This document shows, piece after piece, positions 41,131 through 60,837 of a DNA stretch of 63,018 nucleotides (positions within the stretch are counted from its first letter, which is position 1; every line of letters starts with the position of its first letter). The position numbers and the translations under genes are program-made. Location: assembly GCA_021108435.1 (NCBI GenBank), contig JAIOQY010000170.1, forward strand, positions 1-63,018, read 5' to 3'. The notes below the pieces were generated by a model. That model had not been told where the DNA came from and searched no databases. It was given only the letters and a program-made list of their open reading frames with translations. This DNA is from Candidatus Aegiribacteria sp. (GTDB taxonomy: Bacteria; Fermentibacterota; Fermentibacteria; Fermentibacterales; JCC-6).

Positions 41131-41139
41131 CAGAAGCTC

Positions 41140-43054: not shown

Positions 43055-44077
43055 ATGCTTTACATCAGACGGGGTAATCTTTTTCAGCTCCTGGAATCCC
43101 TTTCGGGGGATTACAGGGTATTTGTGCCTTCCCGAAAAGGGGATGGTATTGCTTTCACTGCATTTGGTGATTCGGAAGAAGATTATGTAATAGGAGAATT
43201 CAGATCCTTCGAACCACTTAAGGCATTTTACTTTCTTGGACGTGAGAAAGTAGCTGTTGATTTCAGTCCTGAAAACCCTCGAAATGAAAAACCTCCCTGT
43301 ATTGTCGGCGTGAAATCATGCGACTTAAAAGGACTTAAAATACTTGATTTTGTATTCATGGATGATGAATACGGAGATCCAACCTACATGAAAGCAAGAA
43401 CGGATGGATTGATCATATCTGCTGACTGTACAAAAGCTGCAGAAACCTGTTTCTGCACCGCGATGGGTGTTAATCCCTGGCCTGAAGCAGAATACGATAT
43501 TAATTTGTCGAAGGTTGATGAAGGTTATGTTGTAGAGATCGGAAGCGATAAAGGGCAGAAGGTTATCGATGATCATATGGCGCTTTTTCAGGAAGCAAAT
43601 GAAGAAAAGATTGAGCAACGTGACCATAATCGCCTTGCGGTAAAGCGGCATATTGAGAAGAGTGTCGGGAAAAAGAATATACCTCCAGTTGAAAGACTCC
43701 AGCGCGTTGTCAGAAAGTATTATGAGTCTGATATCTGGTCAGAGGAAGCTGCTCCATGCGTTGAATGCGGAGCATGCAATGTAATCTGTCCGACATGTCA
43801 CTGTTTCCTTCTGTACGATCAGAAGTCTGATGGCAGCCTGGCCAGATACCGGATATGGGATTCCTGCATGATAAAGGATTTCGCACGAGTAGCGGGGGGA
43901 GAAAACCCAAGAAATCGATTATGGATGCGGCTAAGGAACAGATTTGAAAAGAAGTTTGATTATTTCCCTTCTGTAGCGGATGATATTGCATGTACCGGAT
44001 GCGGCAGATGCATAGCCGCATGTCCGGGTAAAATTGATATAAGACAGGTACTCGCAAGACTGGGTGCACTAAGATGA
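43055..44077 (+). CDS. AsrA / sulfhydrogenase beta-subunit-like iron-sulfur protein
   Basis: C-terminal ferredoxin motifs CVECGACNVICPTCHC and CTGCGRCIAACP. The size and N-terminus (LFQLLESLSGDYRVFVPS) resemble AsrA/HydB. ATG 43055 was preferred over ATG 43013. Confidence 0.7.
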   Translation: MLYIRRGNLFQLLESLSGDYRVFVPSRKGDGIAFTAFGDSEEDYVIGEFRSFEPLKAFYFLGREKVAVDFSPENPRNEKPPCIVGVKSCDLKGLKILDFVFMDDEYGDPTYMKARTDGLIISADCTKAAETCFCTAMGVNPWPEAEYDINLSKVDEGYVVEIGSDKGQKVIDDHMALFQEANEEKIEQRDHNRLAVKRHIEKSVGKKNIPPVERLQRVVRKYYESDIWSEEAAPCVECGACNVICPTCHCFLLYDQKSDGSLARYRIWDSCMIKDFARVAGGENPRNRLWMRLRNRFEKKFDYFPSVADDIACTGCGRCIAACPGKIDIRQVLARLGALR

Positions 44078-44889
44078 AGAATCCATATCGTTCTATCGAG
44101 GCCGAAGTCCTTTCGGTCACAACTGAGACACCTACAATTAAGACATTTCTGTTCAAACCGAAGGAAGAACTCACTTTCAAGCCCGGCCAGTTCATGGAAC
44201 TCTCAGTTCCAGGCCTGGGTGAAGCTCCGTTCACCCCATCTTCTGACTCTGGAATTAAAGAAACGATGGAGATAACCATCGTAAAAGTGGGTAAAGTTAC
44301 CGATGAGATCCATAAGCTCAAACCGGGTGATACTGTTGGTTTGAGAGGTCCGCTTGGCAAGGGATACCCCATGATAAGATTCATCGGTCAGGAAGTACTT
44401 ATTGTAGGCGGCGGTGTTGGCCTTGCTCCTATACGAACTCTGATGTACGATCTGTTTCATATGAGTGACAAACTGTCAAAACTTGTTTACAGAGGCGGTT
44501 GCAGAAATCCCGAAGAGTTGATCTTTCGCAAGGAACTTGAGGGTTGGATGAAACGCGATGATATTGACATGGTTCTTACGGTAGATGAGGGCGATGATTC
44601 CTGGAACGGTCCCGTAGGTCTTGTTACATCGATCATGGACGGCATTGATATGAACTTTTCAAGAGTGAAAGCAGTCGTCTGCGGTCCTCCGATAATGATG
44701 AAATTCGCTACTTTCAAATTGAAAGAACTCGGAGTTGAAGACAGAAATATCTATCTCTCCATGGAGAAGAATATGTCGTGCGGTTTCGGAAAATGCGGCC
44801 ACTGCAGAATAGGTCCTTACTACTGCTGCAAAGATGGTCCTGTTTTTACATATAATATGATTCGGGACTTCCCGGGAATCTGGGACTAG
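44074..44889 (+). CDS. AsrB / sulfhydrogenase gamma-subunit-like FAD/NAD(P)-binding oxidoreductase with a C-terminal 2Fe-2S cluster
   Basis: A ferredoxin-reductase-type fold (FKPGQFMELSVPGLGEAPFTPSS; nucleotide-binding LIVGGGVGLAPI). C-terminal cluster CGFGKCGHCRIGPYYCC. Confidence 0.8.
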   Translation: MKNPYRSIEAEVLSVTTETPTIKTFLFKPKEELTFKPGQFMELSVPGLGEAPFTPSSDSGIKETMEITIVKVGKVTDEIHKLKPGDTVGLRGPLGKGYPMIRFIGQEVLIVGGGVGLAPIRTLMYDLFHMSDKLSKLVYRGGCRNPEELIFRKELEGWMKRDDIDMVLTVDEGDDSWNGPVGLVTSIMDGIDMNFSRVKAVVCGPPIMMKFATFKLKELGVEDRNIYLSMEKNMSCGFGKCGHCRIGPYYCCKDGPVFTYNMIRDFPGIWD

Positions 44890-44895
44890 GAAGGT

Positions 44896-45438
44896 ATGGG
44901 GATGAGCAGGACTTCACTTGATCAGCTTCATGGCAACCTTGATGATGGCCCATCGGGTAAAAAAAAGCTTTTCATAGATCTGGATATCTGTAATTCTGAT
45001 CAATGTGATGAGTGTGTAGTTGATTGCAGTTACTTCTATCATCCAGTGAATAACGGAATGATATCTCTCATAGAGCTTGCTACATATGTACTTGTCTGCA
45101 GAAAGTGCGAAGAACCTCACTGCGTCAATGCATGCCCGAAGGACGCACTTGAAAAACTGGAAGATGCTGACGGAATGCTGGTCCGGCATACTGTCAGATG
45201 TGTCAGCTGCCGATCCTGCTCACATGCATGTCCATATGGAACCATCTACCCTGAGCTGACCCCGCATTTGACGAATATCTGTGATTATTGTGAGGGCAGG
45301 GATGAGTTCACATGCGTTAAAACCTGTCCGTACGGTGCTCTTAAAATCGTGGATGACACATTCGAGGGTGATAATGTATTCAAAGTGGGTAACAGGGTTG
45401 TTGCTCATTCAATTCATTGGGACAGGGACAAGGCATGA
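44896..45438 (+). CDS. Poly-ferredoxin (HycB-like, multiple 4Fe-4S motifs)
   Basis: CRKCEEPHCVNACP, CVSCRSCSHACP and CDYCEGRDEFTCVKTCP, plus an N-terminal CNSDQCDECVVDC. Confidence 0.75.
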   Translation: MGMSRTSLDQLHGNLDDGPSGKKKLFIDLDICNSDQCDECVVDCSYFYHPVNNGMISLIELATYVLVCRKCEEPHCVNACPKDALEKLEDADGMLVRHTVRCVSCRSCSHACPYGTIYPELTPHLTNICDYCEGRDEFTCVKTCPYGALKIVDDTFEGDNVFKVGNRVVAHSIHWDRDKA

Positions 45439-46346
45439 CTTTTATCTACCTTGTTGTATTCGGCTTTATTGCCACTGCGGTTCTGGGACTGGTAACCAGC
45501 TGGATTGACAGAAAGGTTACTGCTCGAGTTCAATACAGGGTGGGGCCACCATTCCTTCAGCCATTCATCGATCTGGTGAAGCTTCTTGGAAAAGAAACTG
45601 TCATACCCTCGACGGCCTCACGCGGCGTATTCCTTTCAGCTCCTCTACTCGGTCTCGCCGGTGTGATTACTGCTTCAACAATATTATGGGTGAACCAGTT
45701 CTTCGCGGATGGTTTCGCGGGTGACTGGATAGTGATTATCTATCTGCTCACTATTCCGTCTCTCAGTCTCATTATTGCCGGTTTTGCATCAGGAAACCCT
45801 CTTGCAAGTCTGGGATCTTCAAGAGAGATGAAACTGGTAATCGCTTACGAGCTTCCATTCATTCTTGCGATGCTTGTTCCGGTTCTCAGTGCTCACTCTA
45901 TTCGTATTAGTGTAATACTTGAAGCTCAGATAACCGGGATTTTCGCAGGAAATATTTCAGGAATACTGGCCATGATTGTAGCTATACTCTGCGTACAGGC
46001 GAAGCTTGGTCTTGTTCCGTTTGATATTCCCGAAGCAGAAACTGAGATTGTGGAAGGTCCGCTTGTAGAATATTCCGGTCCCTGTCTTGCTGTTTTCAAA
46101 CTTATGAAGAGTATGCTCCTCTTTGTTCTCCCTTTCTTCCTTATCATCCTTTTCTTCGGGGGACTGAGACTGGATGGAATCAACCTTCTCTGGACAGTTC
46201 TGGAGTACGTAGGAATTGTGGCGGTAATTACCGTTATTCGAAATACAAACCCCAGGGTTAGAATAGATCAAGCGGTCAGGTTCTTCTGGGGACCTTTGAC
46301 AATAATTGCAGCAGCTGCTGTGATACTGGCGTTAAATGGATTATAG
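45435..46346 (+). CDS. Hydrogenase membrane subunit, NuoH/HycD/MbhM family
   Basis: IDRKVTARVQYRVGPPFLQPFIDLVKLLGKE is the NuoH-family signature. Polytopic. ATGA overlap. Confidence 0.85.
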   Translation: MTFIYLVVFGFIATAVLGLVTSWIDRKVTARVQYRVGPPFLQPFIDLVKLLGKETVIPSTASRGVFLSAPLLGLAGVITASTILWVNQFFADGFAGDWIVIIYLLTIPSLSLIIAGFASGNPLASLGSSREMKLVIAYELPFILAMLVPVLSAHSIRISVILEAQITGIFAGNISGILAMIVAILCVQAKLGLVPFDIPEAETEIVEGPLVEYSGPCLAVFKLMKSMLLFVLPFFLIILFFGGLRLDGINLLWTVLEYVGIVAVITVIRNTNPRVRIDQAVRFFWGPLTIIAAAAVILALNGL

Positions 46347-46367
46347 AAGGGTACGGCTATAGCTGTA

Positions 46368-46793
46368 ATGAGCTTAAAACTGAAAGCACTTCTGAAATCG
46401 CCATGGGTGTTTCACCTGTCTACCGGCAGCTGCAATAACTGCGATATAGAAATACTGGACTGTCTAACACCCAGGTTTGACATTGAACGTTTTGGAATGC
46501 TTCTTGTAGGGAGTATCAAGCATGCTGATGTTCTGCTTGTTACAGGCTCATGCAACAGAATGTCTGTCGAGAGACTGAAGGTTCTGTACGATCAGGTTCC
46601 GAAACCGTGCCTGGTTGTTGCCATCGGTACATGTACCGGATCAAGAGGTCTCTTCATTGACAGCTATAACTGCCCGGTGCCGCTGGACAAAATAATACCG
46701 GTTGATGTTTACATACCCGGCTGTCCACCCAAACCGGAAGCTATGATAGCTGGAATTGTCAAGTTAATACAGAAGGTTGGCGGAGCGCAATGA
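46368..46793 (+). CDS. [NiFe]-hydrogenase small subunit, NuoB/HycG/MbhJ family
   Basis: Cluster ligands GSCNNCDIE, VTGSCN and YIPGCPPKPEA. Confidence 0.9.
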   Translation: MSLKLKALLKSPWVFHLSTGSCNNCDIEILDCLTPRFDIERFGMLLVGSIKHADVLLVTGSCNRMSVERLKVLYDQVPKPCLVVAIGTCTGSRGLFIDSYNCPVPLDKIIPVDVYIPGCPPKPEAMIAGIVKLIQKVGGAQ

Positions 46794-47263
46794 CGAGAGA
46801 GGAAGTTCTTCAGGATCTCAGGGAACGTTTTGGTGATGACATTATTGAACTTCTTGATAAATCTCCATCACGGGTTTATATCGAGATCAAAACTGAATCG
46901 ATCGTTAAAATGGGTTCATATCTGTTCAGGAATCTTGGAGCTCGATTCCAGATAGCATCAGGTACTGATATGCCGCCTCATATAGAGATTCTATACCATT
47001 TCATTATCGAAGATCTCAACCTGATTATTTCACTTCGCGTATGGCTGAATCGTGAGAATCCTGAAATTGCTTCTCTCGCGAAAGAAATAGAGGCTTTCAA
47101 CTGGATAGAACGCGAGATCAGCGAACTGCTCGGAGTCACATTTATTGGACATCCTGATCCTCGGAGGCTTCTCCTCGCTGACAACTGGCCAGAATGTGTT
47201 TATCCTTTAAGACAGGACTATGAAGAGTGGGATGAAACCGCTGACAGGACAAGGGGGGTGTAA
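46790..47263 (+). CDS. NuoC/MbhK-family 30-kDa subunit
   Basis: FNWIEREISELLGVTFIGHPDPRRLLL is typical of NuoC-like proteins. Confidence 0.8.
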   Translation: MTREEVLQDLRERFGDDIIELLDKSPSRVYIEIKTESIVKMGSYLFRNLGARFQIASGTDMPPHIEILYHFIIEDLNLIISLRVWLNRENPEIASLAKEIEAFNWIEREISELLGVTFIGHPDPRRLLLADNWPECVYPLRQDYEEWDETADRTRGV

Positions 47264-48444
47264 TGGGTAAAACAATCATTCCCATAGGTCCGTATCATCC
47301 TCTGCTTGAAGAACCGGAGTTCTTCACACTTACAGTTGATGGTGAGACTGTTGTCGATATCGATATGCGAATGGGCTACAACCACCGCGGTATTGAAAAG
47401 CTCTCCGAGGGACTGGTCTTTGATAACAGCACATTCGTTGTTGAGCGGATCTGCGGTATCTGTTCCACAAGCCATCCCTGGGCGTTTACCAGAGCGGTTG
47501 AAGATATTTTTCCCATGGAGGTTTCCATGCGGGCCAAGTATATCCGGACGATAATCGCCGAGGGGGAAAGAATTCACTCTCATCTTCTCTGGCTCGGTCT
47601 TGCAGGGCATTTCCTTGGTTATAACACAGTTTTTATGTGGTCCTGGAAACTTCGCGAGGAGATACTTGATGTGATGGAGATCCTCTCCGGCAACAGGAAT
47701 TCCTACGCCATGTTCAAACCGGGTGGCGTCAGGAGAGATATTAATGCTGAAGATATCCCGTTATGTCTCAAGAAGATAGATTCAATCGTTCCAACTCTCA
47801 TTATGCTCAAGAAAGCTGTACTGGATGATCCAGTGCTTCATGCGAGGCTCAAGGGTGTAGGGGTTCTTTCATATCAGGAGGCGATAGATTTCAGTGCCCT
47901 CGGACCAACATCCAGAGCTTCCGGTGTTGCCCGTGACGTCCGAAAAGACTCACCGTACGGGGCATACCAGGAGATGGACTGGAACATGATTGTTACTCAG
48001 AACGGTGATGTATTCGATAAAGCTGTTGTCAGGATACTCGAAATGGTCGAGTCGACAAATATTATGAAGTACTGCCTTGAGAATCTCCCTGATGGTGAAA
48101 TTGATGCCTGTATCAAAGATGTGCTTGTTGGTGAGGGTATCGGTTATGTTGAAGCGCCCAGAGGTGAAACATTTCACTACGTCAAAAGCGATGGCACGAA
48201 CAGACCTGTGCGGCACAAGGTCAGAGCCCCGACTTTCATGAATCTTCCAACATACAAAGCGACTGTCATCGGGCAGACAATCTCTGACGCGACTATAATT
48301 CTGGCAGCCATTGATCCCTGCTATTGCTGCACAGAACGCGTTGCTGTCAAAAATGATAAGGGTAAAATGCTTTATAACGGGCAGGATCTTGTCAGACTAA
48401 GTCGTGAGAAAACCGAGAAGATGCGACAGAGGATGGGGGGCTAA
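47263..48444 (+). CDS. Group-4 [NiFe]-hydrogenase large (catalytic) subunit, NuoD/EchE/MbhL family
   Basis: L1 motif RICGICSTSH and L2 motif DPCYCCTER, so all four Ni-Fe ligand Cys are present. A 34-aa tail follows the Arg. Confidence 0.9.
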   Translation: MGKTIIPIGPYHPLLEEPEFFTLTVDGETVVDIDMRMGYNHRGIEKLSEGLVFDNSTFVVERICGICSTSHPWAFTRAVEDIFPMEVSMRAKYIRTIIAEGERIHSHLLWLGLAGHFLGYNTVFMWSWKLREEILDVMEILSGNRNSYAMFKPGGVRRDINAEDIPLCLKKIDSIVPTLIMLKKAVLDDPVLHARLKGVGVLSYQEAIDFSALGPTSRASGVARDVRKDSPYGAYQEMDWNMIVTQNGDVFDKAVVRILEMVESTNIMKYCLENLPDGEIDACIKDVLVGEGIGYVEAPRGETFHYVKSDGTNRPVRHKVRAPTFMNLPTYKATVIGQTISDATIILAAIDPCYCCTERVAVKNDKGKMLYNGQDLVRLSREKTEKMRQRMGG

Positions 48445-50148
48445 ATGAATCTCAATCTGATAATTGACGCTTTGAGAAATCCAGATGGATTTTTTGCAGC
48501 TACTCCCATATCGATTCTCTGTGCAGCATTTGCCGCACTGTTCTTTGTTTTTGTGATTCTTTATTCCATTAAGCATATGAAGGGCCGAAAAGGTCTATGG
48601 CGATATTATTTCTATCTCATACTGACGTTCATTTCCACTGTTGCTGTTCTCTTCACCACCAGTTTTGTTCTGTTACTGGTTTTCTGGGGATTTCTCGGGT
48701 TTCTTCTTTATCTGCTGATCAATTTCGGCAGGACTGAAGGAACACCCGAAGCAGCAAGGAAAGCGCTTGTAATAATAGGCGGCACAGATGTACTTCTGCT
48801 TTTCGGTATTGTTCTTGTATGGAAGCTTGTAGCGGGCAATTCGGGATTTCATGGATTGCTCTATCTACATTTTGGGAATCTTGGCATTCCACTTGCCGGT
48901 AGAGCATCCGTTATAGCGTATCTGTGCCTTGCCTCCGCTGCTCTGGCAAAAGCAGGATGTATGCCCTTCCATACATGGCTGCCGGATACAGCCAGAGATG
49001 CTCCGGTTCCTGTTACGGCTTATCTGCCTGCTTCATTGGACAAACTTCTTGGTATCTATTTTCTTGCGAGAATTACGCTTGATGTATTTCAAATGACACC
49101 TGCTATGAATACAATACTCATGGCTCTCGGAAGTATTACAATAATGGGTGCGGTCATGATGGCACTTGTTCAGCATGATCTGAAGAGGCTTCTGGGATAT
49201 CACGCAGTAAGCCAGGTCGGATACATGGTTCTCGGAATAGGAACCGGTAACCCGATAGGTATCGCCGGCGCGCTGTTCCACATGTTCAACAACACGATCT
49301 ACAAATCAAGCCTTTTCCTTGCGGGAGGCGAAGTTGAAAGAAGAACAGGCACATCTGACCTATCCAAACTTGGCGGCCTTGCTAAAGCGATGCCACTGGT
49401 ATTTGTAGCTTTCCTGATTGCTTCACTCTCGATATCCGGAGTTCCTCCATTCAATGGTTTTGCGTCCAAATGGATGCTGTATCAGGGAATTATCGGTTCT
49501 GGCGGAAGCGGTATTTGGATTGTATGGCTGGTTGCAGCCATGCTCGGAAGCGCTCTTACACTTGCCAGTTTCATGAAACTGATTCATACCGTATTCCTCG
49601 GACAACCATCGGAAGGTGTAAAAAAGATTGTATCCGGTGAGAAGGAGAAAATCGGTTTTTCCACAGGGGTTCCTCTTCTGGTACTTTCCATACTCTGTAT
49701 TGGCCTGGGTGTGTTCGCCTGGAAGATACCGTTTGCAGACCTCTTCAGACCTGAAACAGGCGGTCAGGTTCATCTCACAGGTGTCTGGCAGTCCGGACTG
49801 GCCACTCTGATGATCATTTCAGGTCTCATTATCGGATACCTTATCTACCTTGCTGGAAAACTCAAGAAAACCAGAACAGTTGCACCGTTTGTAGGAGGTG
49901 AAGTTCTTGAGGATAATCCTGATATGAGAGTATCAGGCGTTGATTTCTATAAAACTATCAGGGAGCTTGGTCTGCTGAAAGGTATCTACCGATGGGCGGA
50001 GAAGAAGTACTTCGATTTGTATGAGATTGCTGGTAAATTTGTCGGCGGATTTGGAGTAGTGTTCTCTTTCATGCATAATGGATTGCTGTCCAGATACATA
50101 CTATGGTGTCTTATCGGACTTGTGGTTCTATGCATAGTGCTGATCTGA
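48445..50148 (+). CDS. Antiporter-like membrane subunit, MrpA/NuoL family
   Basis: 567 aa, polytopic. Proton-conducting transporter motifs (MPFHTWLPDTARDAPVPVTAYL, LLGYHAVSQVGYMVLG, HMFNNTIYKSSLFLAGG). Confidence 0.8.
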   Translation: MNLNLIIDALRNPDGFFAATPISILCAAFAALFFVFVILYSIKHMKGRKGLWRYYFYLILTFISTVAVLFTTSFVLLLVFWGFLGFLLYLLINFGRTEGTPEAARKALVIIGGTDVLLLFGIVLVWKLVAGNSGFHGLLYLHFGNLGIPLAGRASVIAYLCLASAALAKAGCMPFHTWLPDTARDAPVPVTAYLPASLDKLLGIYFLARITLDVFQMTPAMNTILMALGSITIMGAVMMALVQHDLKRLLGYHAVSQVGYMVLGIGTGNPIGIAGALFHMFNNTIYKSSLFLAGGEVERRTGTSDLSKLGGLAKAMPLVFVAFLIASLSISGVPPFNGFASKWMLYQGIIGSGGSGIWIVWLVAAMLGSALTLASFMKLIHTVFLGQPSEGVKKIVSGEKEKIGFSTGVPLLVLSILCIGLGVFAWKIPFADLFRPETGGQVHLTGVWQSGLATLMIISGLIIGYLIYLAGKLKKTRTVAPFVGGEVLEDNPDMRVSGVDFYKTIRELGLLKGIYRWAEKKYFDLYEIAGKFVGGFGVVFSFMHNGLLSRYILWCLIGLVVLCIVLI

Positions 50149-50161
50149 TTGGGTTTGGAAG

Positions 50162-50710
50162 ATGATTGAACTTTACGTACTGCTTGGTTTGATGATTGCA
50201 GGTTCATTGATCGCTATCGAGATTAAGAACCTTCTGTCAGCCGTTGTTGCTGTAGGTGTTGTAGGACTCGGGCTTTCTATCGTATTCCTGCTTCTGAAAG
50301 CACCGGATGTAGCGCTTACCCAGATTGTGGTTGAAATCGCTGCCGTAATACTCCTCATTCGAGCTACTCTCAATCGTGAAATCGCCGCGAAATACTGTGG
50401 CACCAGACCTTTTGGTGCATTTATGGGAATTCTTTTCACCGGTTTTGTGTTTGTAATCGCGCTTATCACCTTCAAAGACGGGCTTAACATATTCGGTGCT
50501 CCTCTCATGACTGTTTCGCAGTTCTATCCTCAGAGTGCGATAGAGGGAACAGGCGCTACGAATGTGGTCTCTGCGATAATCCTTGATTACAGAGCATACG
50601 ATACTCTTGGTGAAGCTACGGTCCTGTTCACAGCTGTTGTTGGTGTTCTCACTGTAATGAGAAGCCCCGGAAAGAAAAAAGAAGAAGATTTGCAGGATAA
50701 GAATGAGTAA
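50162..50710 (+). CDS. MbhD-like (DUF4040) fused to an MnhB-like segment
   Basis: LLKAPDVALTQIVVEIA is MbhD/DUF4040-like. NVVSAIILDYRAYDTLGEATVLFTAVVGV is MnhB-like. Confidence 0.7.
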   Translation: MIELYVLLGLMIAGSLIAIEIKNLLSAVVAVGVVGLGLSIVFLLLKAPDVALTQIVVEIAAVILLIRATLNREIAAKYCGTRPFGAFMGILFTGFVFVIALITFKDGLNIFGAPLMTVSQFYPQSAIEGTGATNVVSAIILDYRAYDTLGEATVLFTAVVGVLTVMRSPGKKKEEDLQDKNE

Positions 50711-51158
50711 AGAACCAGATCGCGGAATGACTATTATTGTAAAAACTGTCACCAGGTTAACTGTAGGGCTGATATTTCTTTTTGGAATTTACATAATACT
50801 GCACGGTCATCTCACACCTGGTGGAGGATTCGCCGGAGGCGTGATTGTCGCTCTTTCTTTCATTAACCTTGATCTTGCCTTCGGGGGTAAGGTTTCAGCC
50901 AGGATATTTTCCAAGGGCAGCACATCGGTTATTGAGGCTTTCGGAGGGATCATGTTTCTGGCGCTTGCTCTTCTTGGGCTTCAATGGGGAGGATTTTTTG
51001 ATAACTTCCTTCACCCTGACGGAGAACCCGGAATGCTGATAAGCGCTGGAATAATACCTCTGGAGAACATTGCGATAAGTCTCAAGGTTGGTGCCGGTCT
51101 GTTTGCTATCTTCCTGACACTGATAACACTCCAGAAATTTGAATCGGAGAAGAAGTAA
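50703..51158 (+). CDS. Na+/H+ antiporter MnhB-family subunit
   Basis: LHGHLTPGGGFAGGVIVALSF is the MnhB signature. Confidence 0.7.
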   Translation: MSKEPDRGMTIIVKTVTRLTVGLIFLFGIYIILHGHLTPGGGFAGGVIVALSFINLDLAFGGKVSARIFSKGSTSVIEAFGGIMFLALALLGLQWGGFFDNFLHPDGEPGMLISAGIIPLENIAISLKVGAGLFAIFLTLITLQKFESEKK

Positions 51159-51511
51159 TGGACGCGTATCTGCCATATGTGCTATGCCTCGTACTCTTCT
51201 GCATCGGTATCTACGCAGTGATCTCCAAACGGAATATTATCAAGATTATCATTGGTGTTATCATTGCCGAGTATGCGGTCAATCTGTTTCTTATTCTCGT
51301 GGCTTACAAGGCTGGAGGCAGATCACCCATATTCTCCAGTACTCAGGAGATACTGCCGGAAGCTATGGTTGATCCCCTTCCTCATGCGCTTGTTCTGACA
51401 TCAATAGTTATCGGACTGGCAACCACAGCCTTTCTTATTGCGCTTGCTGTGCGTCTTTACGGTAAATACGGAACATTTGATATTTCAAGGATGCGGGAGT
51501 TAAGAGGATGA
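51158..51511 (+). CDS. MnhC/NuoK-family subunit
   Basis: 117 aa with 3 TM segments. IGIYAVISKRNIIKIIIGVIIAEYAVNLFLI and LTSIVIGLATTAFLIAL. Confidence 0.75.
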   Translation: MDAYLPYVLCLVLFCIGIYAVISKRNIIKIIIGVIIAEYAVNLFLILVAYKAGGRSPIFSSTQEILPEAMVDPLPHALVLTSIVIGLATTAFLIALAVRLYGKYGTFDISRMRELRG

Positions 51512-53001
51512 TAAACGAAAGCACAATTCCGCTTTTCGTAGCCCTGCCGCTTGCGGGAGCTTTCCTGACCGTGCTCCTGAAAAGGATTAAAGGTATTCCT
51601 GACACTCTTGGCGTAATGGCATCCATAGGAACCTTTGTCATGTCAGTATTTACTGTAATACAACTTGAGATCGGCCAGAGAATCATATGCAATATCGGCA
51701 ACTGGGGCGGATTTCAGGAAGTGCTGGGGAAAATAGTCGGCATTCAGCTGGTAGTAGATGGATTAACAGCCTTCATGCTTGTTGTGGTAAATCTTATTGC
51801 CTTCCTTGTTGCGGTATATTCAGTCAATTACATGACAAGATACACTGAAAAATGGCAGTTCTACTCGCTTTTCCTTCTTATGCTTGCCGGAATGAACGGC
51901 GTACTGATCACCGGAGACATGTTCAACCTCTTTGTCTTCGTGGAGATCGCGTCAATCGCCAGTTATGCACTGGTTGCCTTCGGCACAGGAAAGAGAGAGC
52001 TCGAAGCATCGTTCAAGTATGCTGTAATGGGAGGTATCGCCTCTTTATTAATACTTCTTGGCGTGATATTCCTTTACAGCAATACTGGAACGCTGAATAT
52101 GGCTGACATGACCCGTATTCTGGCGGGAAGAGACCATCCCGCTCTCCTTTACTTCGTATTCGCTCTGTTCCTTACGGGATTTGGCCTTAAAGCGGCTCTT
52201 GTTCCGTTCCACGCCTGGCTTCCTGACGCGCATCCCTCGGCTCCCGCGCCGATATCCGCAATGCTGTCCGGTGTTCTGATTAAGGCTCTGGGCGTGTATG
52301 TGATAGCAAGGGTATTTTACAATATATTCGGATTAACTTATGAATTATCCCTTATTTTGATGACACTTGGAGCAATCTCCATGGGAGTTGGTGCCCTGGT
52401 CGCACTGAGACAGTGGGATTTGAAGCGTCTGCTGGCCTACAGTTCCATAAGCCAGGTTGGTTTCATCATGCTCGGGTTTGGAATAGGAACCCCTCTCGCG
52501 GTACTGGGAGCGCTTTTCCACCTGTTCAATCACTCCATGTTCAAATCTCTGCTGTTCCTTGACTCCGGAGCGATCGAGTATGCGGCACATACTCGGGATC
52601 TGAAGGAAATGGGTGGACTCGCGAAGAAAATGCCCATTACGAACGGTTCTACAATCATAGGAGCCATGTCACTTGCGGGAGTACCGCCGTTCGCTGGATT
52701 CTGGAGCAAATTGATAATTATCGTTGCCGCTGTACAGGCAAGTCATATGAAATTGGCAGCCTGGGCTGTGCTTATGAGCATTGTTACAATTGCCTATGTA
52801 CTCAAAGCCGTTAGATTTGCCTTCCTCGGAGAACTCAAAGAAAAATTCGCCAACATCACTGAAGTTCCGGCGTTCATGAGAGTATCCTTAATAGTTCTTG
52901 CGCTGGTGTGCCTTTTTGGAGGACTGCTTCTTATTCCTGATCTGAGGAATGGATTCCTTGGACAGGCCGTTGATGTTCTAACCAGAGTAAGCGGGGTGTA
53001 G
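51508..53001 (+). CDS. Antiporter-like membrane subunit, MrpD/NuoM-N family
   Basis: VPFHAWLPDAHPSAPAPISAMLSGVLIK, LLAYSSISQVGFIMLG and HLFNHSMFKSLLFL. Confidence 0.85.
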   Translation: MINESTIPLFVALPLAGAFLTVLLKRIKGIPDTLGVMASIGTFVMSVFTVIQLEIGQRIICNIGNWGGFQEVLGKIVGIQLVVDGLTAFMLVVVNLIAFLVAVYSVNYMTRYTEKWQFYSLFLLMLAGMNGVLITGDMFNLFVFVEIASIASYALVAFGTGKRELEASFKYAVMGGIASLLILLGVIFLYSNTGTLNMADMTRILAGRDHPALLYFVFALFLTGFGLKAALVPFHAWLPDAHPSAPAPISAMLSGVLIKALGVYVIARVFYNIFGLTYELSLILMTLGAISMGVGALVALRQWDLKRLLAYSSISQVGFIMLGFGIGTPLAVLGALFHLFNHSMFKSLLFLDSGAIEYAAHTRDLKEMGGLAKKMPITNGSTIIGAMSLAGVPPFAGFWSKLIIIVAAVQASHMKLAAWAVLMSIVTIAYVLKAVRFAFLGELKEKFANITEVPAFMRVSLIVLALVCLFGGLLLIPDLRNGFLGQAVDVLTRVSGV

Positions 53002-53006
53002 GACTT

Positions 53007-53522
53007 ATGAAGAGCAGAATATTAATGTTCATAATATCCTTCGTAGTGTGGTGCATCCTTTGCTGGGAACCGGATACTGAACATCTGATCGCCGGCGGAG
53101 CTGTTTCATTAATTGTCGCAGCCGTCATGGGTTCGCTCTTCGTCACCAGACCGCACTTGATGATACATCCGATCAGAGTGTTTTACTTCCTTTTCTGGTA
53201 TGTTCCTGTGTTTGTGTGGGAACTGTTGAAGGCGAATTTCGATGTGGCGTACAGGGTAGCGCATCCAGGTCTTCCCATAAAACCCGGAATTGTAAGGCTG
53301 AAGACAGAGTTGAAATCAGATACAGGCCTTACATTCCTCGCAAACTCGATAACCCTTACTCCTGGTACTCTGACAATCGATATCAATAAGGATGATGGTA
53401 TTCTATACATCCACTGGATCAACGTTATCGGTTCTGATCCGGCTACAACCTTCAAGGAAATCGGCAGCAGATTCGAGCCGATACTTAAGAAGATTTTCGA
53501 AGAAAACGTGGTTTCAAAATGA
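53007..53522 (+). CDS. MnhE-family subunit
   Basis: LLKANFDVAYRVAHPGLPIKPGIVRLKTELKSDTGLTFLANSITLTPGTLTIDI. Confidence 0.75.
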   Translation: MKSRILMFIISFVVWCILCWEPDTEHLIAGGAVSLIVAAVMGSLFVTRPHLMIHPIRVFYFLFWYVPVFVWELLKANFDVAYRVAHPGLPIKPGIVRLKTELKSDTGLTFLANSITLTPGTLTIDINKDDGILYIHWINVIGSDPATTFKEIGSRFEPILKKIFEENVVSK

Positions 53523-53890
53523 GGTCATACAGGTGGCTTGCAGGTACCGTGGTTCTTGGAGTTATTCTTGCCCTTATAATCATCCTTCCTTTCAGAAGTG
53601 TGTTCTTCACGCAGAATGATATACATATCAGTTTCACGGGAAGAGCCGTTTACGTCCTGATATTAACTTCACTTATGGTGCTTTTCAGGGTTCTCAGAGG
53701 ACCGACTGCGGCTGACAGAATTGTAGCGATTGATATTTTCGGTATTCTTATCGTCGGGTTATGTGCTGTACTCAGCGTTACCACAGGACGTTCATGGTAC
53801 ATCGATATTGGTATCGCCTGGGGGCTTCAGAGCTTCATCGGCACGCTGGCTCTTGCCAAGTATCTGGAGGGAAGAAGCTTCGATGATTGA
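53519..53890 (+). CDS. MnhF-family subunit
   Basis: VLRGPTAADRIVAIDIFGILIVG. Confidence 0.75.
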   Translation: MRSYRWLAGTVVLGVILALIIILPFRSVFFTQNDIHISFTGRAVYVLILTSLMVLFRVLRGPTAADRIVAIDIFGILIVGLCAVLSVTTGRSWYIDIGIAWGLQSFIGTLALAKYLEGRSFDD

Positions 53891-54221
53891 TATTATTGGA
53901 ATGGTCTTTATTGGTTTTGGAATCGGATTTGATGTATTCGGCTGTATTGGACTAATCCGTCTTCCTGATGTCTACAATCGTCTTCAGGCAGCGACAAAAT
54001 GTGTTACTCTTGGAACATGCAGCATACTGTTCGGTACGTTTCTGATGGCCGGTGGATTTACACCTACAGGTTTTAAAGCACTGATAGCAATAGTATTCCT
54101 GATTCTCGCGTCTCCTGTGGCCGCCCATGCGGTGTCCAGAGGAGCTCACCGCGCCGGTATCAAGCTCTGGGACAAGAGCGTGGTTGACAGTTACGCCGAG
54201 GACAAAGAGGGAGAAGCTTAG
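53883..54221 (+). CDS. MnhG-family subunit
   Basis: MIDIIGMVFIGFGIGFDVFGCIGLIRLPDVYNRLQAATK. ATG 53883 overlaps the mnhF-like stop (ATGATTGA). The longer ORF from 53730 was rejected. Confidence 0.75.
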   Translation: MIDIIGMVFIGFGIGFDVFGCIGLIRLPDVYNRLQAATKCVTLGTCSILFGTFLMAGGFTPTGFKALIAIVFLILASPVAAHAVSRGAHRAGIKLWDKSVVDSYAEDKEGEA

Positions 54222-54260
54222 AATAACGAATCGCCACTGGCGATACTCACGGATGGAGAT

Positions 54261-54881
54261 ATGAAATATCCAAAGCTCAGAGAACTCGCAGAAGCAATTA
54301 AAGCGGTGGTTAAGGGACCTTATACATCGAAGTTTCCCTCGAAACCACACGTTCCTCATCCAAATTTCAGAGGACAGGTTGTTTATGACGAGGAAAAATG
54401 CCTTGGATGTCTTGCGTGTGTAGAAGCCTGTCCTGCAAATGCGCTGGCGTTCGAAGATATTATCGAAGGAGAGGGATCTCCAAAACGGGTGATGATCCAT
54501 TACACCGATACATGTATTTTCTGCGGTGTCTGTGTTGATACATGTATCAGGGAAACCGGAGATACAGGTATCGTTCAGACGAACGAATGGGAACTCTCAT
54601 ACTTCGATCGCGAAAATGCATTCGAAACTATTGAAAAGGAACTTCAGCTTTGCGAGTTATGCGGGGCTGCCATCGGCACAAAGGATCATCTTGTCTGGCT
54701 TGCTGAAAAACTCGGAGAGCTTTCATATTCAAATCCCACGCTGTACCTTTCACGACTGAAGGAACTCGGCCTGGTAGATGAGAATATAACAACGGTATAC
54801 AAAGACGATGGGCGATCTGACAGAGTCAAGATCCTCTGTGCTGAATGCAGACGGAGAACAGCAACATACCCTGAGGAATAA
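54261..54881 (+). CDS. NuoI/MbhN-like 2x[4Fe-4S] ferredoxin subunit with a C-terminal Cys-pair extension
   Basis: CLGCLACVEACP and CIFCGVCVDTC. Additional CELCG and CAECRR pairs lie in the C-terminal ~80 aa. Confidence 0.8.
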   Translation: MKYPKLRELAEAIKAVVKGPYTSKFPSKPHVPHPNFRGQVVYDEEKCLGCLACVEACPANALAFEDIIEGEGSPKRVMIHYTDTCIFCGVCVDTCIRETGDTGIVQTNEWELSYFDRENAFETIEKELQLCELCGAAIGTKDHLVWLAEKLGELSYSNPTLYLSRLKELGLVDENITTVYKDDGRSDRVKILCAECRRRTATYPEE

Positions 54882-54907
54882 CAGAAACGAATATAAAGTT
54901 ATTACTA

Positions 54908-54940
54908 CCGGTGACATTTGAAAATGTTGCCGGTATTTTG
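54908..54940 (+). terminator. Terminator-like hairpin after the last hydrogenase structural gene
   Basis: CCGGTGACATT (54908-54918) / AATGTTGCCGG (54923-54933): an 11-bp stem with two G-U pairs and loop TGAA, followed by TATTTTG. Confidence 0.45.
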
Positions 54941-54950
54941 CTATATACAC

Positions 54951-54980
54951 GGGGACATACAGGCTCTGCTGTGTGTCCCC
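54951..54980 (+). repeat. 30-nt palindromic hairpin element, copy 2
   Basis: GGGGACATACAG-GCTCTG-CTGTGTGTCCCC, a 12-bp stem (one G-U) with a 6-nt loop. It matches the reverse complement of 70-99 at 28 of 30 positions. Confidence 0.7.
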
Positions 54981-55028
54981 CCAAAACATGTTTCTGGTGC
55001 GTGCCATCGAATACAGAAGGATGGTCAT

Positions 55029-55490
55029 ATGTGCGAATTTAAGAAAAAAATCCGGGATCTGTTGAAAGGGAGAACCGTCTATATGGGGATGGGCAACATC
55101 CTCAGGGGAGACGATGGTATAGGGCCAAAGCTAGTTGAAGTGCTCTGGAAAAAGGGTGCTAGAGCTGTGGATGCCGGTACTGTTCCCGAGAATTATATAG
55201 GTTCGGTGAAAAGGCTTGAACCTGATATAATAGTTATGATTGATGCAGTGCACCTTGGAAAGGAACCGGGATCAGTTGAGCTGCTGAAGCGGGATGAAAT
55301 ACTGGAGAACAGCGGTTTCAGCACACACAGTCTTTCACCGGTTCTGGTGATGGAACGGCTGGAAAGCGAGACAGGAGCCGCAGTATTCATGCTGGCTATT
55401 CAACCTGGGACTCTCGAGTTTGGTGCTCCGTTGTCCCCGGCAGTTAACAGTTTATTGACAACCCTCCCCGACCTCCTCCCAGGGACGTAG
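55029..55490 (+). CDS. hycI: Hydrogenase maturation endopeptidase (HycI/HyaD family)
   Basis: VYMGMGNILRGDDGIGPKLV, MIDAV and FSTHSLSP. ATG 55029 was chosen. Confidence 0.8.
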   Translation: MCEFKKKIRDLLKGRTVYMGMGNILRGDDGIGPKLVEVLWKKGARAVDAGTVPENYIGSVKRLEPDIIVMIDAVHLGKEPGSVELLKRDEILENSGFSTHSLSPVLVMERLESETGAAVFMLAIQPGTLEFGAPLSPAVNSLLTTLPDLLPGT

Positions 55491-55526: not shown

Positions 55527-57146
55527 TTGGATTGGGACCATGTGAGCATTGAAATTCGAGCTGAACAGAGATCAAGACGTTCCGAAGGGGGGAAAGTAGT
55601 TGTATATCTGGCAATCATTGTTGCTATTTCGGTTTTCCTTCTGATTAACACTTTCGGAGTTCAACTGGTTGACGATGGCTATTACTATCTGGAGATCGCC
55701 CGGAATATCTCCTGTGGAAACGGTATTACATTTGACGGAATAAACAGAACAAACGGTTTTCATCCATTATGGCAGGCTATGCTTGTTCCGGTATTTCTGA
55801 TGACCCGGAGCAGAGCTCTTGCCGCTCAGGCTGTAACCATGCTTCAGACGCTACTTTTTGCAGCAAGTGGTTTTGTACTTTACAGGATTTTAATTGAGAA
55901 TACGAAGAAAATCCTCCTTTCAGTCGCAGCTGCTGCTTTCTGGCTTCTGAATTTCTGGTTCTGGAGCAAGGGAGCCCTGTCAGGAATGGAGACCGGACTC
56001 CTGATCTTATGTTACGGGATAAGTCTTCTTCTCTTTGCCCGCTCACTTCGTGGATTGTACAGTACATGGCCGCTTTCCATTTCCCTTATCGCAACCTGCA
56101 TGGCCAGGCTGGATTCACTTGCCCTTGTTTTTGGAGTCTGTCTGATCTTCACTCTTTCTGGAAGGTTCCGTGATGCCCTTCGCACAGGACTTCCGGTGAT
56201 GATCTATCTGATACTGTATGTGATTGTCAATAAGCTGTATTTCGGGGGAATATTCCCCGTTTCAGGATACATTAAATCCGCTGCAGGTAGTGAACTTCTA
56301 AGACAGTTGCTCGAAAATGGAGACATTGGATTTTTTCAGCATGGAGTAAATAATTTTGTTAATTTTGCCACCCTTGGAGGACGCCTTCCTCTTCCAGCCG
56401 CGCTTGCGGTTGTTGGGGGAGTCATCTGGGCAGCTGTGTGGTTTATAAGAACCGAAGTTACTTCGAACAGGGAACTGATGGCTGTGTGCTGCTGCTACAC
56501 TGTTTTTCTTCTGTTCTATTACTCCTTCATGTACGAATCGCTTCTGGATGTATATACCTATTACTGGTTTCCTGTGATTTTCGGAGTAATGATTTCATTT
56601 GTTCTTCTATTATCAAGAATAAGAATCAGATTACTCAGACAGGGAATTACATGGATTCTTCTTGCGGGACTTGTCGTTTTCAATATCGTGTATGCCAATG
56701 ATCGTCTTCAGGGATATTCGTTTGTGATTCCGGATTCCCAAAGACCCGAGCGGAATGGTGTTGATTTTCTGAACACACTTGACGACGGGACAGTGATTGG
56801 ATCGTGGGATGCAGGATATGTAGGATATTACTGCAAACATCGGATCGTGAATCTGGATGGTCTTGTCAACAATTACGAATATCAGAGAATTCTGCATGAT
56901 CAGGGTCTCGAAAAATACCTTTATATGCAGAACATTACATGTATTGCAAACATTGATCATTTCACAGGCACTCGCGATATGATAGAACGCATGTCGGGGT
57001 GGTATCAGGTATTTGAGGATTCGAGCGAATTTCCCAATCCTGTTTCACTATTTTCAGTATCTGAGGATGGGAGTCTTTATGCGTCACGGCAGTCCAGAGT
57101 ATTTTTCGTATACTGCCGATCAGTCGTTTTTCAACCTGAAAACTGA
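55527..57146 (+). CDS. Polytopic membrane protein, possibly a GT-C-fold glycosyltransferase
   Basis: About 12 or more hydrophobic segments. The first loop reads LVDDGYYYLEIARNISCGNGITFDGINRTNGFHPLW, an acidic motif next to the first TM as in the ArnT/PMT class. A soluble ~150-aa C-terminal domain follows. TTG start. The family assignment is tentative. Confidence 0.45.
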   Translation: MDWDHVSIEIRAEQRSRRSEGGKVVVYLAIIVAISVFLLINTFGVQLVDDGYYYLEIARNISCGNGITFDGINRTNGFHPLWQAMLVPVFLMTRSRALAAQAVTMLQTLLFAASGFVLYRILIENTKKILLSVAAAAFWLLNFWFWSKGALSGMETGLLILCYGISLLLFARSLRGLYSTWPLSISLIATCMARLDSLALVFGVCLIFTLSGRFRDALRTGLPVMIYLILYVIVNKLYFGGIFPVSGYIKSAAGSELLRQLLENGDIGFFQHGVNNFVNFATLGGRLPLPAALAVVGGVIWAAVWFIRTEVTSNRELMAVCCCYTVFLLFYYSFMYESLLDVYTYYWFPVIFGVMISFVLLLSRIRIRLLRQGITWILLAGLVVFNIVYANDRLQGYSFVIPDSQRPERNGVDFLNTLDDGTVIGSWDAGYVGYYCKHRIVNLDGLVNNYEYQRILHDQGLEKYLYMQNITCIANIDHFTGTRDMIERMSGWYQVFEDSSEFPNPVSLFSVSEDGSLYASRQSRVFFVYCRSVVFQPEN

Positions 57147-57799
57147 TTTTCCAGGAAACCGCAGAATTCTTCGATTCCTTCGCCCGTTTTCGCCGAGACG
57201 GTGAATACAAGGACTTCCGGATTAAGACTTCTGCATTCATCTATCGTTCTGTCTACGTCGAAATCAATGTGGGGGAGAAGATCCATCTTGTTGATCAAAA
57301 GTACTGATATCCTGCTGAAAAGGGAGGGATACTTAAGTATCTTGTCATCACCCTCTGGCAGGGAAATGAGTCCTATCTTGAGGTTCTCACCAAGATCGTA
57401 ACCGCTTGGACAAATCAGATTGCCCACATTCTCGATACAGAGCAAAGCGAGTTCATCCGATTCAAGATCCATGTGTCCAAGAGCGTGATTAACTGCTTCA
57501 GCATCGAGATGACAGGAACCGCCGGTTTCTATCTGCCAGGCCTGGCATCCTGCTTTTCTTACTCGTTCCGCATCGCGGTCAGTTTGCACATCTCCTTCAA
57601 TAACAGCCATCTTCGATCCGAAAAAACGGGCCATTGATTCGAGAAGTGTGGTTTTACCGGCACCTGGAGAACTGATAAGATTAAGTGTGAATATTTTCTT
57701 CCCACTCAGCAATTCCCTGTTAGACGCAGCAAAACGGTCGTTCTTATCCATGACAGGGGTGGAGATGTTCACTGTCTGTTTTGTGGTATCATCGCACAT
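57131..57799 (-). CDS. hypB: Hydrogenase nickel-incorporation GTPase
   Basis: P-loop SSPGAGKTTLLE, IEGDVQT, metal site CHLDA, ENVGNLICP and NKMDL. Confidence 0.9.
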   Translation of the reverse strand: MCDDTTKQTVNISTPVMDKNDRFAASNRELLSGKKIFTLNLISSPGAGKTTLLESMARFFGSKMAVIEGDVQTDRDAERVRKAGCQAWQIETGGSCHLDAEAVNHALGHMDLESDELALLCIENVGNLICPSGYDLGENLKIGLISLPEGDDKILKYPSLFSRISVLLINKMDLLPHIDFDVDRTIDECRSLNPEVLVFTVSAKTGEGIEEFCGFLENQFSG

Positions 57800-60532: not shown

Positions 60533-60534
60533 GG

Positions 60535-60837
60535 ATGTGTCTTGGAGTGCCGGGAAGGATTGAAGAGATTATCCAGGGAGACGATCCGATCTTCAGGACT
60601 GGAAAAGTGAGTTTCGGCGGAATCCTGCGTGATATAAGTCTGGCAGGGGTCAGTAATGCAGAAGTTGGTGACTGGGTTATTGTTCATGCCGGTTTTGCTC
60701 TGAACAAATTGAATGAGGATGAAGCAACTGAGGTTTTCAAATATCTCAGGCAGATTTCGGAATATGGTAAAGAAGAACTTAAAAGCGATCATAATACCTT
60801 ACAACGAAATATTATACCCGATACGGGTACATCTTGA
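60535..60837 (+). CDS. hypC: Hydrogenase assembly chaperone HypC
   Basis: The invariant N-terminus MCLGVPGRI. Length is 100 aa. Confidence 0.9.

Follow-up and report, generated by a model that had tools for sequence, protein, structure and literature searches.

A Hun-type, Mrp-linked group-4 [NiFe]-hydrogenase operon with an AsrAB-like head in Candidatus Aegiribacteria, a candidate ion-coupled NAD(P)H/H2 oxidoreductase

We analysed a 63,018-nucleotide stretch of DNA from Candidatus Aegiribacteria sp. (contig JAIOQY010000170.1 of assembly GCA_021108435.1; hereafter the window, at its full length). A 16-gene core at 43055-54881 is a complete hunA-P operon of the published "Hun" type, which encodes a group-4 [NiFe] hydrogenase joined to an Mrp-type antiporter set and headed by a pair of proteins resembling AsrA and AsrB of anaerobic sulfite reductase. 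An earlier note on this DNA, made from the sequence alone, had implied that the arrangement was novel. This proved wrong, as the gene order has been published and named Hun (10.1101/536078) and was also seen in Saganbacteria (PMC6349859); the window operon is a further copy of an already named, uncharacterised family, and its gene order is not new. Our contribution concerns what the enzyme may do. We slightly favour reading Hun as a reversible, ion-coupled NAD(P)H/H2 oxidoreductase, and we rank this reading first because the NAD(P)-binding motifs of HunB are invariant across lineages, while the ferredoxin-dependent Mbh needs no such subunit. The fuller proposal, in which Hun, as a reversible NAD(P)H:H+ oxidoreductase coupled to Na+/H+, forms the missing third side of a ferredoxin / NAD(P)H / H2 triangle beside Rnf and Ech/Mbh, is somewhat more tentative and falls a little short of an even bet.

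Head module, hydrogenase core and membrane arm

The first two genes of the operon encode homologs of the NAD(P)H-flavin entry module of group-3b hydrogenases, as the earlier note had proposed. The best Protein Data Bank (PDB) match of HunA was the beta subunit of the Pyrococcus furiosus sulfhydrogenase SHI (9nez_B, E 4e-42 over 331 residues), with which 15 of its 16 cysteines align, all 15 being invariant in 62 orthologs. HunB best matched SHI gamma (9nez_C, E 2e-54), followed by PyrK, the NfnI small subunit, NqrF and other FNR-family NAD(P)H flavoproteins, and it has the FAD barrel, NAD(P) domain and [2Fe-2S] cysteines of an FNR/PyrK-type flavoprotein, with all Pfam domains above cut-off. An AlphaFold (AF2) model of HunB, built on 31 sequences (mean predicted local distance difference test score, pLDDT, 87.7), most resembled the gamma subunit of NADPH-bound SHI (9nf0_C; template modelling score, TM, 0.87; 37% identity). 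Of 50 structural matches listed, 49 bear names of NAD(P)-linked flavoprotein reductases or subunits thereof; the title of the remaining one gives only a dioxygenase-system reductase. The motifs PFTPSS (flavin), RGPxG, GGGxGxAP (nucleotide), CGPP and CGxGKCGHC…C ([2Fe-2S]) are invariant or nearly so in 31-68 sequences. HunB is, on these motifs and this model, a predicted NAD(P)-binding flavoprotein; the defective nucleotide-binding site that the earlier note had looked to as a possible refutation did not appear.

Scores against curated NCBI models set both proteins apart from the enzymes whose names they often bear. HunA reached 171 bits with ShyB (cut-off 690), 153 with HydB (750) and 139 with AsrA (TIGR02910, 323); HunB reached 223 with AsrB (TIGR02911, 289) and 185 with HydG (650), and also scored below the ShyC cut-off. 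HunA and HunB lie under every named equivalog cut-off. They form a separate clade of the same superfamily and are neither sulfite reductase nor sulfhydrogenase subunits. SHI is moreover cytoplasmic and built on group-3 alpha and delta subunits in a four-subunit enzyme, whereas Hun has group-4 catalytic subunits and a membrane anchor. Homologs of HunB appear in public annotation as 'sulfite reductase subunit B', 'NAD(P)H-flavin reductase', 'FAD/NAD(P)-binding protein' and 'oxidoreductase', and large-subunit homologs often as 'NADH-quinone oxidoreductase subunit D'.

The sulfite reductase names bear on a sulfur role, in which HunA of a membrane-bound 'sulfhydrogenase' would reduce elemental sulfur (S0) or polysulfide, the electrons coming from H2 or NAD(P)H, or in which the AsrAB-like pair would serve an AsrC encoded elsewhere. 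Besides those names, SHI has S0-reductase activity in vitro. Sulfur reduction is mentioned in papers on Hyd24-12 and on Atribacteria (for the latter, PMC6469976). We nevertheless rank this role last and consider it very improbable. The scores of HunA and HunB against AsrA and AsrB fall short, and no asrC or other siroheme (NIR_SIR) gene, nor any group-3 hydrogenase alpha or delta gene, was found among the scanned ORFs of the window (the operon and hyp genes, and 5' of the operon all open reading frames of 120 aa or more); the earlier note's alternative of separately transcribed AsrAB-like genes serving a reductase elsewhere thus found no support. The position and overlapping junctions of the pair are fixed in all informative loci, while intact [NiFe] ligands, hycI and the hyp genes point to H2 chemistry as the purpose of the operon. 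The ligands are invariant, the junctions overlap and the synteny is conserved, which likewise ruled out a stray or pseudogenised asrAB. The AsrAB-like pair belongs to the operon as its conserved, integral head.

The third head protein, HunC, has 16 cysteines in four complete [4Fe-4S] motifs, 14 of them invariant in 70 orthologs (C32 and C40 are each substituted in one sequence). Its PDB relatives include the AOR Fe-S subunit (8c0z_C) and HycB4 of HDCR (7qv7_B), and it resembles HycB/CooF-type connector proteins.

The catalytic core is that of a group-4 [NiFe] hydrogenase: a NuoD-related HunG with two cysteine pairs, a NuoB-like HunE, and a C-terminal tail accompanied by hycI. The motifs RICGICSTSH (L1) and DPCYCCTER (L2) of HunG are invariant in 81 sequences, contain the CGIC and CYCC signatures diagnostic of Hun, and are followed after L2 by a tail of 35-46 aa, the predicted substrate of HycI cleavage. 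The closest solved structures were MbhL (6cfw_L, E 4.6e-87) and then HycE (7z0s_E, E 3e-79), and the score against ShyA was 47.5 bits (cut-off 700). HunE passed the NCBIfam NuoB subfamily cut-off (131 bits versus 116), is 77-99% identical across loci and has eight cysteines, of which we take C22, C25, C89 and C119, by the NuoB/group-4 motif, to be the proximal-cluster ligands. The second iron-sulfur connector, HunP, fell under the cut-off of the NCBIfam formate hydrogenlyase Fe-S subunit. It matched HycF (7z0s_F, E 2.6e-15), MbsN and MbhN in the PDB, the Escherichia coli HycF scoring better than MbhN. Across 60 orthologs, its C47/50/53/57, C85/88/91/95 and C131/134/193 do not vary, and one ortholog has His in place of C196. 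The extra CxxC pairs point to a further metal site that MbhN, with its 139 aa, does not have. Similar pairs may occur in E. coli HycF; a PDB search with HunP residues 100-206 alone returned no sequence match. Overall, the cluster cysteines of HunA, HunC and HunP are invariant but for three (HunC C32 and C40, HunP C196), and those of HunG without exception.

The membrane arm contains homologs of MrpA (N- and C-terminal parts), B, C, D, E, F and G, by Pfam and by PDB matches to MrpA and MrpD. HunH matched MbhH (6cfw_H, E 2.8e-47) and the N-terminal part of MrpA (6z16_A, E 4e-40); the MbhD and MbhE domains fused in HunI presumably correspond to the C-terminal part of MrpA, as in Mbh and Mrp structures; and HunL scored 367 bits, under cut-off, with the NCBIfam antiporter subunit D subfamily. 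Hun therefore has two antiporter-like subunits, HunH and HunL, within a full MrpA-G complement. Mbh has one antiporter-like subunit and uses ferredoxin as donor. The P. furiosus enzyme (group 4d, 6CFW) shares the Mrp-linked, ion-translocating design, and its MbhL, MbhH, MbhN and MbhD/E match Hun subunits, but its 14 subunits (MbhA-N) include no flavoprotein or HycB-like head and its L2 motif differs from the CYCC of Hun, which thus does not have the composition of group 4d.

These parts suggest a complex-I-shaped enzyme in three sections: a membrane arm of the Mrp-type set HunH-O joined through the NuoH-like HunD, a peripheral arm made by the hydrogenase (HunE, HunF, HunG, HunP), and a distal head of HunA, HunB and HunC. 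Electrons would pass from NAD(P)H to the FAD and then the [2Fe-2S] cluster of HunB, to the [4Fe-4S] clusters of HunA, through the four [4Fe-4S] clusters of HunC to HunP, HunE and the [NiFe] site of HunG, and their transfer would be tied to ion movement through HunD and HunH-O. In fermenting cells, an inward flow of Na+/H+ would power H2 release from NAD(P)H; when H2 is plentiful, its oxidation to NAD(P)H would pump ions outward. We infer that the 16 products form one complex, and likewise its substrate, direction and coupling ion.

By analogy, the peripheral arm is apparently built like formate hydrogenlyase and the Thermococcus formate and CO complexes, with the dehydrogenase swapped for an SHI-type beta-gamma flavoprotein pair. 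E. coli formate hydrogenlyase (group 4a, 7Z0S), whose HycE is the second-closest solved large subunit and whose HycF matches HunP, and the formate/CO Mrp-Mbh clusters of Thermococcus onnurineus (group 4b) share the chain from dehydrogenase to HycB-like, HycF-like, small and large subunits. Their input is a molybdopterin formate dehydrogenase or a CO dehydrogenase, whereas that of Hun is an FAD/NAD(P)-binding flavoprotein pair. Respiratory complex I has homologs of NuoB, C, D, H, I, K, L and N in common with Hun, for which the L-shape and the distal pyridine-nucleotide flavoprotein are inferred. The NuoEFG module is, however, absent from the Hun operon (Pfam), and HunG keeps all Ni-Fe cysteines, so that H+/H2 would serve as acceptor or donor in place of quinone.

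Electron donor, direction and energetics

With E°' values of -320 mV for NAD+/NADH and -414 mV for H+/H2, H2 formation from NADH is uphill by ~94 mV, or +18 kJ/mol, under standard conditions. Ion coupling therefore matters, and the argument of the earlier note that NAD(P)H-driven H2 evolution is uphill and ion coupling meaningful stands. The ~94 mV span is by our estimate of the same order as that with which Mbh works. At 10 Pa H2 we calculated about -5 kJ/mol for the reaction, and ~15 kJ/mol for moving one ion against a gradient assumed to be ~150 mV; NADH-driven H2 evolution with outward pumping would be possible only below roughly 0.2 Pa H2. Since the reaction is uphill and H2 in anoxic habitats is usually ~1-10 Pa, outward pumping during H2 formation from NADH would not be possible there. 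The likely options on energetic grounds are gradient-driven H2 evolution, H2 oxidation with outward pumping, or ferredoxin as the real or an additional donor.

Several points weigh against NAD(P)H as the substrate. H2 production at the cost of an ion gradient is expensive for a fermenter, and HunC and HunP offer plausible docking surfaces for ferredoxin, so that NAD(P)H need be neither the sole nor the main partner. As to the nucleotide specificity of HunB, the stretch after strand beta-2 of its NAD domain reads YRGGCRNPEEL versus NTARYGKDLLF in SHI gamma, with acidic residues against the Lys of SHI, which is at most a weak hint of a preference for NADH over NADPH. The naming paper predicts that reduced ferredoxin donates electrons via HunABC (10.1101/536078), HydDB describes group 4g as uncharacterised and 'ferredoxin-coupled (putative)' (PMC5037454), and papers on metagenome-assembled genomes (MAGs) of Omnitrophota, Cloacimonadota, Auribacterota and Hyd24-12 model a related 4g enzyme as ferredoxin-driven. 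No study of the biochemistry or structure of a Hun-type enzyme turned up in the literature that we searched, and no biochemical data are on record for group 4g (PMC5037454).

Most of these points suit a ferredoxin-driven Hun, which we rank second and consider rather unlikely, though clearly ahead of the remaining alternatives. Ferredoxin reduced by pyruvate:ferredoxin oxidoreductase (PFOR) would feed HunABC or HunP, H2 would be made, and the Mrp arm would pump Na+/H+ outward as in Pyrococcus Mbh, with the HunB flavin acting merely as a relay or side outlet. This is the published reading; it runs in the exergonic, energy-conserving direction that fits fermenters, and it agrees with the proximity of HunG to MbhL. 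Yet Mbh works without any flavoprotein, ferredoxin presumably docking on its MbhN. Invariant NAD(P)-binding motifs in an FNR-fold HunB are hard to explain if a nucleotide is never bound, and the premise that an AsrAB-like pair is fed by ferredoxin does not match its closest solved homolog, the NADPH-binding SHI gamma (9nf0).

The two donors might also be combined, electrons from ferredoxin entering through HunC or HunP and those from NAD(P)H through HunB, so that Hun would act by confurcation onto H2 or as an ion-coupled exchanger of ferredoxin, NAD(P) and H2, Rnf-like and Ech-like at once. Such a hub, third in our ranking, would resolve the energetic problem of H2 evolution from NADH only, and a chain of more than ten clusters offers several possible surface entry points. 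Bird et al. wrote of electrons from "ferredoxin or NADH" in Atribacteria (PMC6469976). We regard it as improbable: there is a single predicted flavin site, and the operon contains no second flavoprotein and no HydABC-, NuoF- or HdrA-like subunit (Pfam). The relatives of HunB (SHI gamma, PyrK and the NfnI small subunit) are, furthermore, flavin subunits that are not known to bifurcate electrons.

The choice among these donors matters for more than one lineage. Group-4g/Hun enzymes have a wide distribution, which takes in Fermentibacteria, Omnitrophota, Planctomycetia-labelled genomes, Hydrogenedentota, Atribacteria and others, and metabolic models of carrier lineages routinely assume ferredoxin-driven, energy-conserving H2 production. 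If NAD(P)H coupling is correct, those models misstate the energy balance, as H2 evolution would consume the ion gradient. Hun would then represent an ion-coupled NAD(P)H/H2 enzyme of a new class, a living complex-I-like machine with a pyridine-nucleotide head other than NuoEFG, with which fermenters and syntrophs of uncultured lineages would either dispose of NAD(P)H electrons as H2 at the expense of the ion gradient or gain energy by oxidising H2 to NAD(P)H. The question of substrate and direction is not first raised here, the NADH option and co-transcription being already in print. It is testable because cultured carriers exist, namely Desulfosarcina variabilis among our loci and the Kosmotoga isolates reported with the naming of Hun (10.1101/536078). 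As to annotation, the 'sulfite reductase A/B' genes of the window are hydrogenase subunits and give no evidence of sulfite or sulfur respiration; labels such as 'sulfite reductase' and 'NADH-quinone oxidoreductase' can mislead reconstructions towards sulfite/sulfur reduction or complex I.

Published record and distribution of Hun

Hun was named as a '16-subunit respiratory complex' from Atribacteria-dominated methane-hydrate sediments, with AsrAB-like HunAB, HunC as the next Fe-S protein, HunEFGP as the hydrogenase module, HunDHILK as the P-module and HunIJKLMNO as the Na-module (bioRxiv 10.1101/536078). The same study typed HunG as HydDB group 4g, noting that it clusters apart and has CGIC…CYCC metal-site motifs, and listed carriers in Atribacteria, Omnitrophica, Elusimicrobia, Bacteroidetes, Firmicutes and cultured Kosmotoga. 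Earlier, Matheus Carnevali et al. had described the same arrangement in Saganbacteria as 'enigmatic', with an additional molybdopterin protein, and likened its asrA/asrB/cooF-like genes to nuoE/nuoF (PMC6349859). In Atribacteria metatranscriptomes, the hydrogenase was reported to be co-transcribed with an 'oxidoreductase' (PMC6469976). Close Omnitrophota and Cloacimonadota-type enzymes have been reported as 4g and Mrp-linked, and genome papers on the lineage of the window already show 'an energy-conserving hydrogenase'. Carr 2015 makes no mention of the hydrogenase.

The window matches published Hun in its 16-gene order, AsrAB-like HunAB, polyferredoxin HunC, CGIC/CYCC HunG, Mrp-like HunH-O and NuoI-like HunP. 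It differs from some variants in lacking a molybdopterin gene between hunB and hunC, from published hosts in its lineage (Fermentibacteria/Aegiribacteria), and from the naming paper in the donor, ferredoxin there and NAD(P)H in the reading we favour. The earlier note had asked whether this gene order with an NAD(P)H partner was already described: the gene order is, and an NAD(P)H partner is at most a proposal.

The earlier note had also proposed a search for the same asrA-asrB-hycB-mbh-mrp synteny in other genomes. We scanned one genome per species for relatives, kept the best 80 loci of 160 relatives, and compared every window protein with all loci by tblastn, and the gene order was collinear in all 80. 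The 17-gene order, collinear in 80 loci of other genomes, is far beyond chance. The loci carry about ten phylum-level labels, which we counted from record titles: 17 Fermentibacteria/Aegiribacteria/Hyd24-12, 26 Omnitrophota, 11 'Planctomycetia', 4 Hydrogenedentota, 3 Spirochaetota, 2 Sumerlaeota, 2 Deltaproteobacteria, 11 unclassified, and one each of Elusimicrobiota, Atribacteria, Nitrospiraceae and Ca. Obscuribacterium. One of the two deltaproteobacterial loci (L079) is the complete genome of cultured Desulfosarcina variabilis, which has the full operon.

Large subunits in these loci were 77-96% identical to HunG of the window. Its relatives at 85-96% identity are named Candidatus Aegiribacteria or Fermentibacteria, and relatives at ~80% Omnitrophota. 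In loci L016-L080, HunE (77-91%) and HunG (77-83%) were closer to the window than HunA-C and the Mrp subunits (47-75%). This unusually high conservation of HunE and HunG between phyla points to a very strongly constrained catalytic core or else to an operon that has recently spread horizontally.

Head genes, counted as present at a coverage of at least 85%, were found in 61 (HunA), 67 (HunB) and 69 (HunC) loci. Where they are missing, the contig ends within ~1.5 kb upstream of hunG, with the sole exception of L018. On this Omnitrophota contig (1-4135), RHS-repeat ORFs abut hunF, and hunA-E, hunP and hycI are missing. Because of the abutting ORFs and the loss of hunD, hunE, hunP and hycI as well, we consider L018 a rearranged or chimeric contig and not a natural variant without HunABC. 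In the three Spirochaetota loci (L021, L042, L078), hunP and hycI follow hunG within 6-9 nt, with no Mrp genes between. A variant without Mrp was ruled out in L078, where a divergent Mrp-like set (45-52% identity) lies upstream of hunA; the contigs of L021 and L042 are short.

Gene calls, maturation genes and neighbours

ORF lists and Pfam scans gave 17 co-directional ORFs on the + strand of 43055-55490 (Table 1), in the order AsrA-like, AsrB-like, polyferredoxin, NuoH/B/C/D-like, Mrp-like set and NuoI-like, closing with hycI. The gene order set out in the earlier note was thus recovered, and Pfam agreed with its domain identity for each gene, including the complete MrpA-G-like set. Its claim of overlapping or near-abutting junctions holds from hunA to hunP, where with the refined starts neighbouring genes overlap by 1-8 nt or lie 0-39 nt apart (hunA/hunB overlap by 4 nt, hunB/hunC are 6 nt apart and hunC/hunD overlap by 4 nt), but not for hunP and hycI, which are 147 nt apart with a hairpin between them. 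The tightly coupled unit is, therefore, the 16 genes from hunA to hunP.

Starts of hunA, hunD, hunO and hycI were refined from ortholog alignments and Shine-Dalgarno-like motifs; the likely hunA start, 43055, agrees with that of the earlier note. The hunD ATG, which overlaps the hunC stop, is preceded by the Shine-Dalgarno-like GGGACAAGG, and that of hunO by GGAGGG. The hycI start probably lies at 55029 and not at 54918, with GAAGGA 5' of it, and the alignment with orthologs begins near residue 37-43 of the long ORF.

Table 1 Features of the hun operon and the genes that follow it in the window
Feature	Position	Strand	Product or description	Basis and remarks
hunA	43055..44077	+	AsrA/sulfhydrogenase-beta-like Fe-S subunit	Pfam Fer4_22 E 1.5e-30; ORF open from 43013
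hunB	44074..44889	+	AsrB/sulfhydrogenase-gamma-like FAD, NAD(P), [2Fe-2S] flavoprotein	Pfam FAD_binding_6, NAD_binding_1, DHODB_Fe-S_bind
hunC	44896..45438	+	HycB/CooF-like polyferredoxin, 4 x [4Fe-4S] motifs	Pfam Fer4_11
hunD	45435..46346	+	NuoH/MbhM-like membrane anchor	Pfam NADHdh E 4e-68
hunE	46368..46793	+	NuoB-like hydrogenase small subunit	Pfam Oxidored_q6
hunF	46790..47263	+	NuoC-like subunit	Pfam Complex1_30kDa
hunG	47263..48444	+	Group-4 [NiFe]-hydrogenase large subunit, 393 aa	Pfam Complex1_49kDa, NiFeSe_Hases
hunH	48445..50148	+	MrpA(N-terminal)/NuoL-like antiporter subunit, 567 aa	Pfam Proton_antipo_M
hunI	50162..50710	+	Fused MbhD + MbhE-like subunit	Pfam MbhD, MbhE
hunJ	50703..51158	+	MrpB/MnhB-like subunit	Pfam MnhB
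hunK	51158..51511	+	MrpC/NuoK-like subunit	Pfam Oxidored_q2
hunL	51508..53001	+	MrpD/NuoN-like antiporter subunit, 497 aa	Pfam Proton_antipo_M, Proton_antipo_N
hunM	53007..53522	+	MrpE-like subunit	Pfam MNHE E 3e-44
hunN	53519..53890	+	MrpF-like subunit	Pfam MrpF_PhaF; 33 orthologs align from residue 1
hunO	53883..54221	+	MrpG-like subunit	ORF open from 53730; Pfam PhaG_MnhG_YufB from residue 60 of long ORF
hunP	54261..54881	+	NuoI/HycF-like 2 x [4Fe-4S] subunit, C-terminal extension with 4 more Cys	Pfam Fer4_7 and others
Hairpin	54906..54935	+	13-bp stem, then T-run	Terminator-like scan
hycI	55029..55490	+	Large-subunit C-terminal maturation endopeptidase	Pfam HycI
Membrane ORF	55527..57146	+	539 aa	No family match
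hypB	57131..57799	-	Nickel-insertion maturase	Pfam cobW
hypA	57801..58148	-	Nickel-insertion maturase	Pfam HypA
hypF, hypC, hypD, hypE	58193..62971	+	Fe(CN)2CO maturases	Pfam HypF domains, HypD, AIRS/AIRS_C for HypE
hypC	60535..60837	+		Assigned by position and size in the ORF list only

Rfam gave no matches across the window, and a consensus promoter scan found fewer sites than in shuffled sequence. Directly 5' of the likely hunA start, at 43020 (+), TTGACA is followed after 17 nt by TATTTC, a site below the scan criteria. The hunA start itself has no Shine-Dalgarno motif, and translation may begin from a leaderless or nearly leaderless transcript.

The HycI protein scored 101 bits against TIGR00142 (cut-off 119) and 99.6 against TIGR00072 (cut-off 47.45). 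The hairpin ahead of its gene, followed by TTTTGCTAT, is the strongest terminator-like site in 42000-58500 and may be an attenuator or terminator that separates hycI from the 16 structural genes or lowers its expression relative to them. The hyp genes do not lie immediately downstream, as the earlier note had placed them; the 539-aa polytopic ORF comes first, then hypB and hypA on the minus strand, and only then hypFCDE. The 539-aa ORF has no Pfam or NCBIfam match. Among the Hun loci, only the closest Fermentibacteria ones (L001, L002, L003, L007 and L012) have it, at 73-90% identity, and those of other phyla lack it; its N-terminal 'DDGYYYLE' loop presumably recalls GT-C-type glycosyltransferases.

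Upstream of the operon, a FIST-domain protein and a PAS hybrid histidine kinase/receiver are encoded at 36630-39930 (+), followed at 39937-42952 (-) by three genes: one FlgT_N-like, one without Pfam match (41140-42126) and one CsgG/LpoB-like. Nothing ties the genes of 36630-42952 to the hydrogenase. Further upstream, 33073-36561 (+) encodes a radical-SAM protein, a FeeM-type N-acyl amino acid synthase and a B12-binding radical-SAM enzyme, a cluster that could make a modified lipid or N-acyl amino acid.

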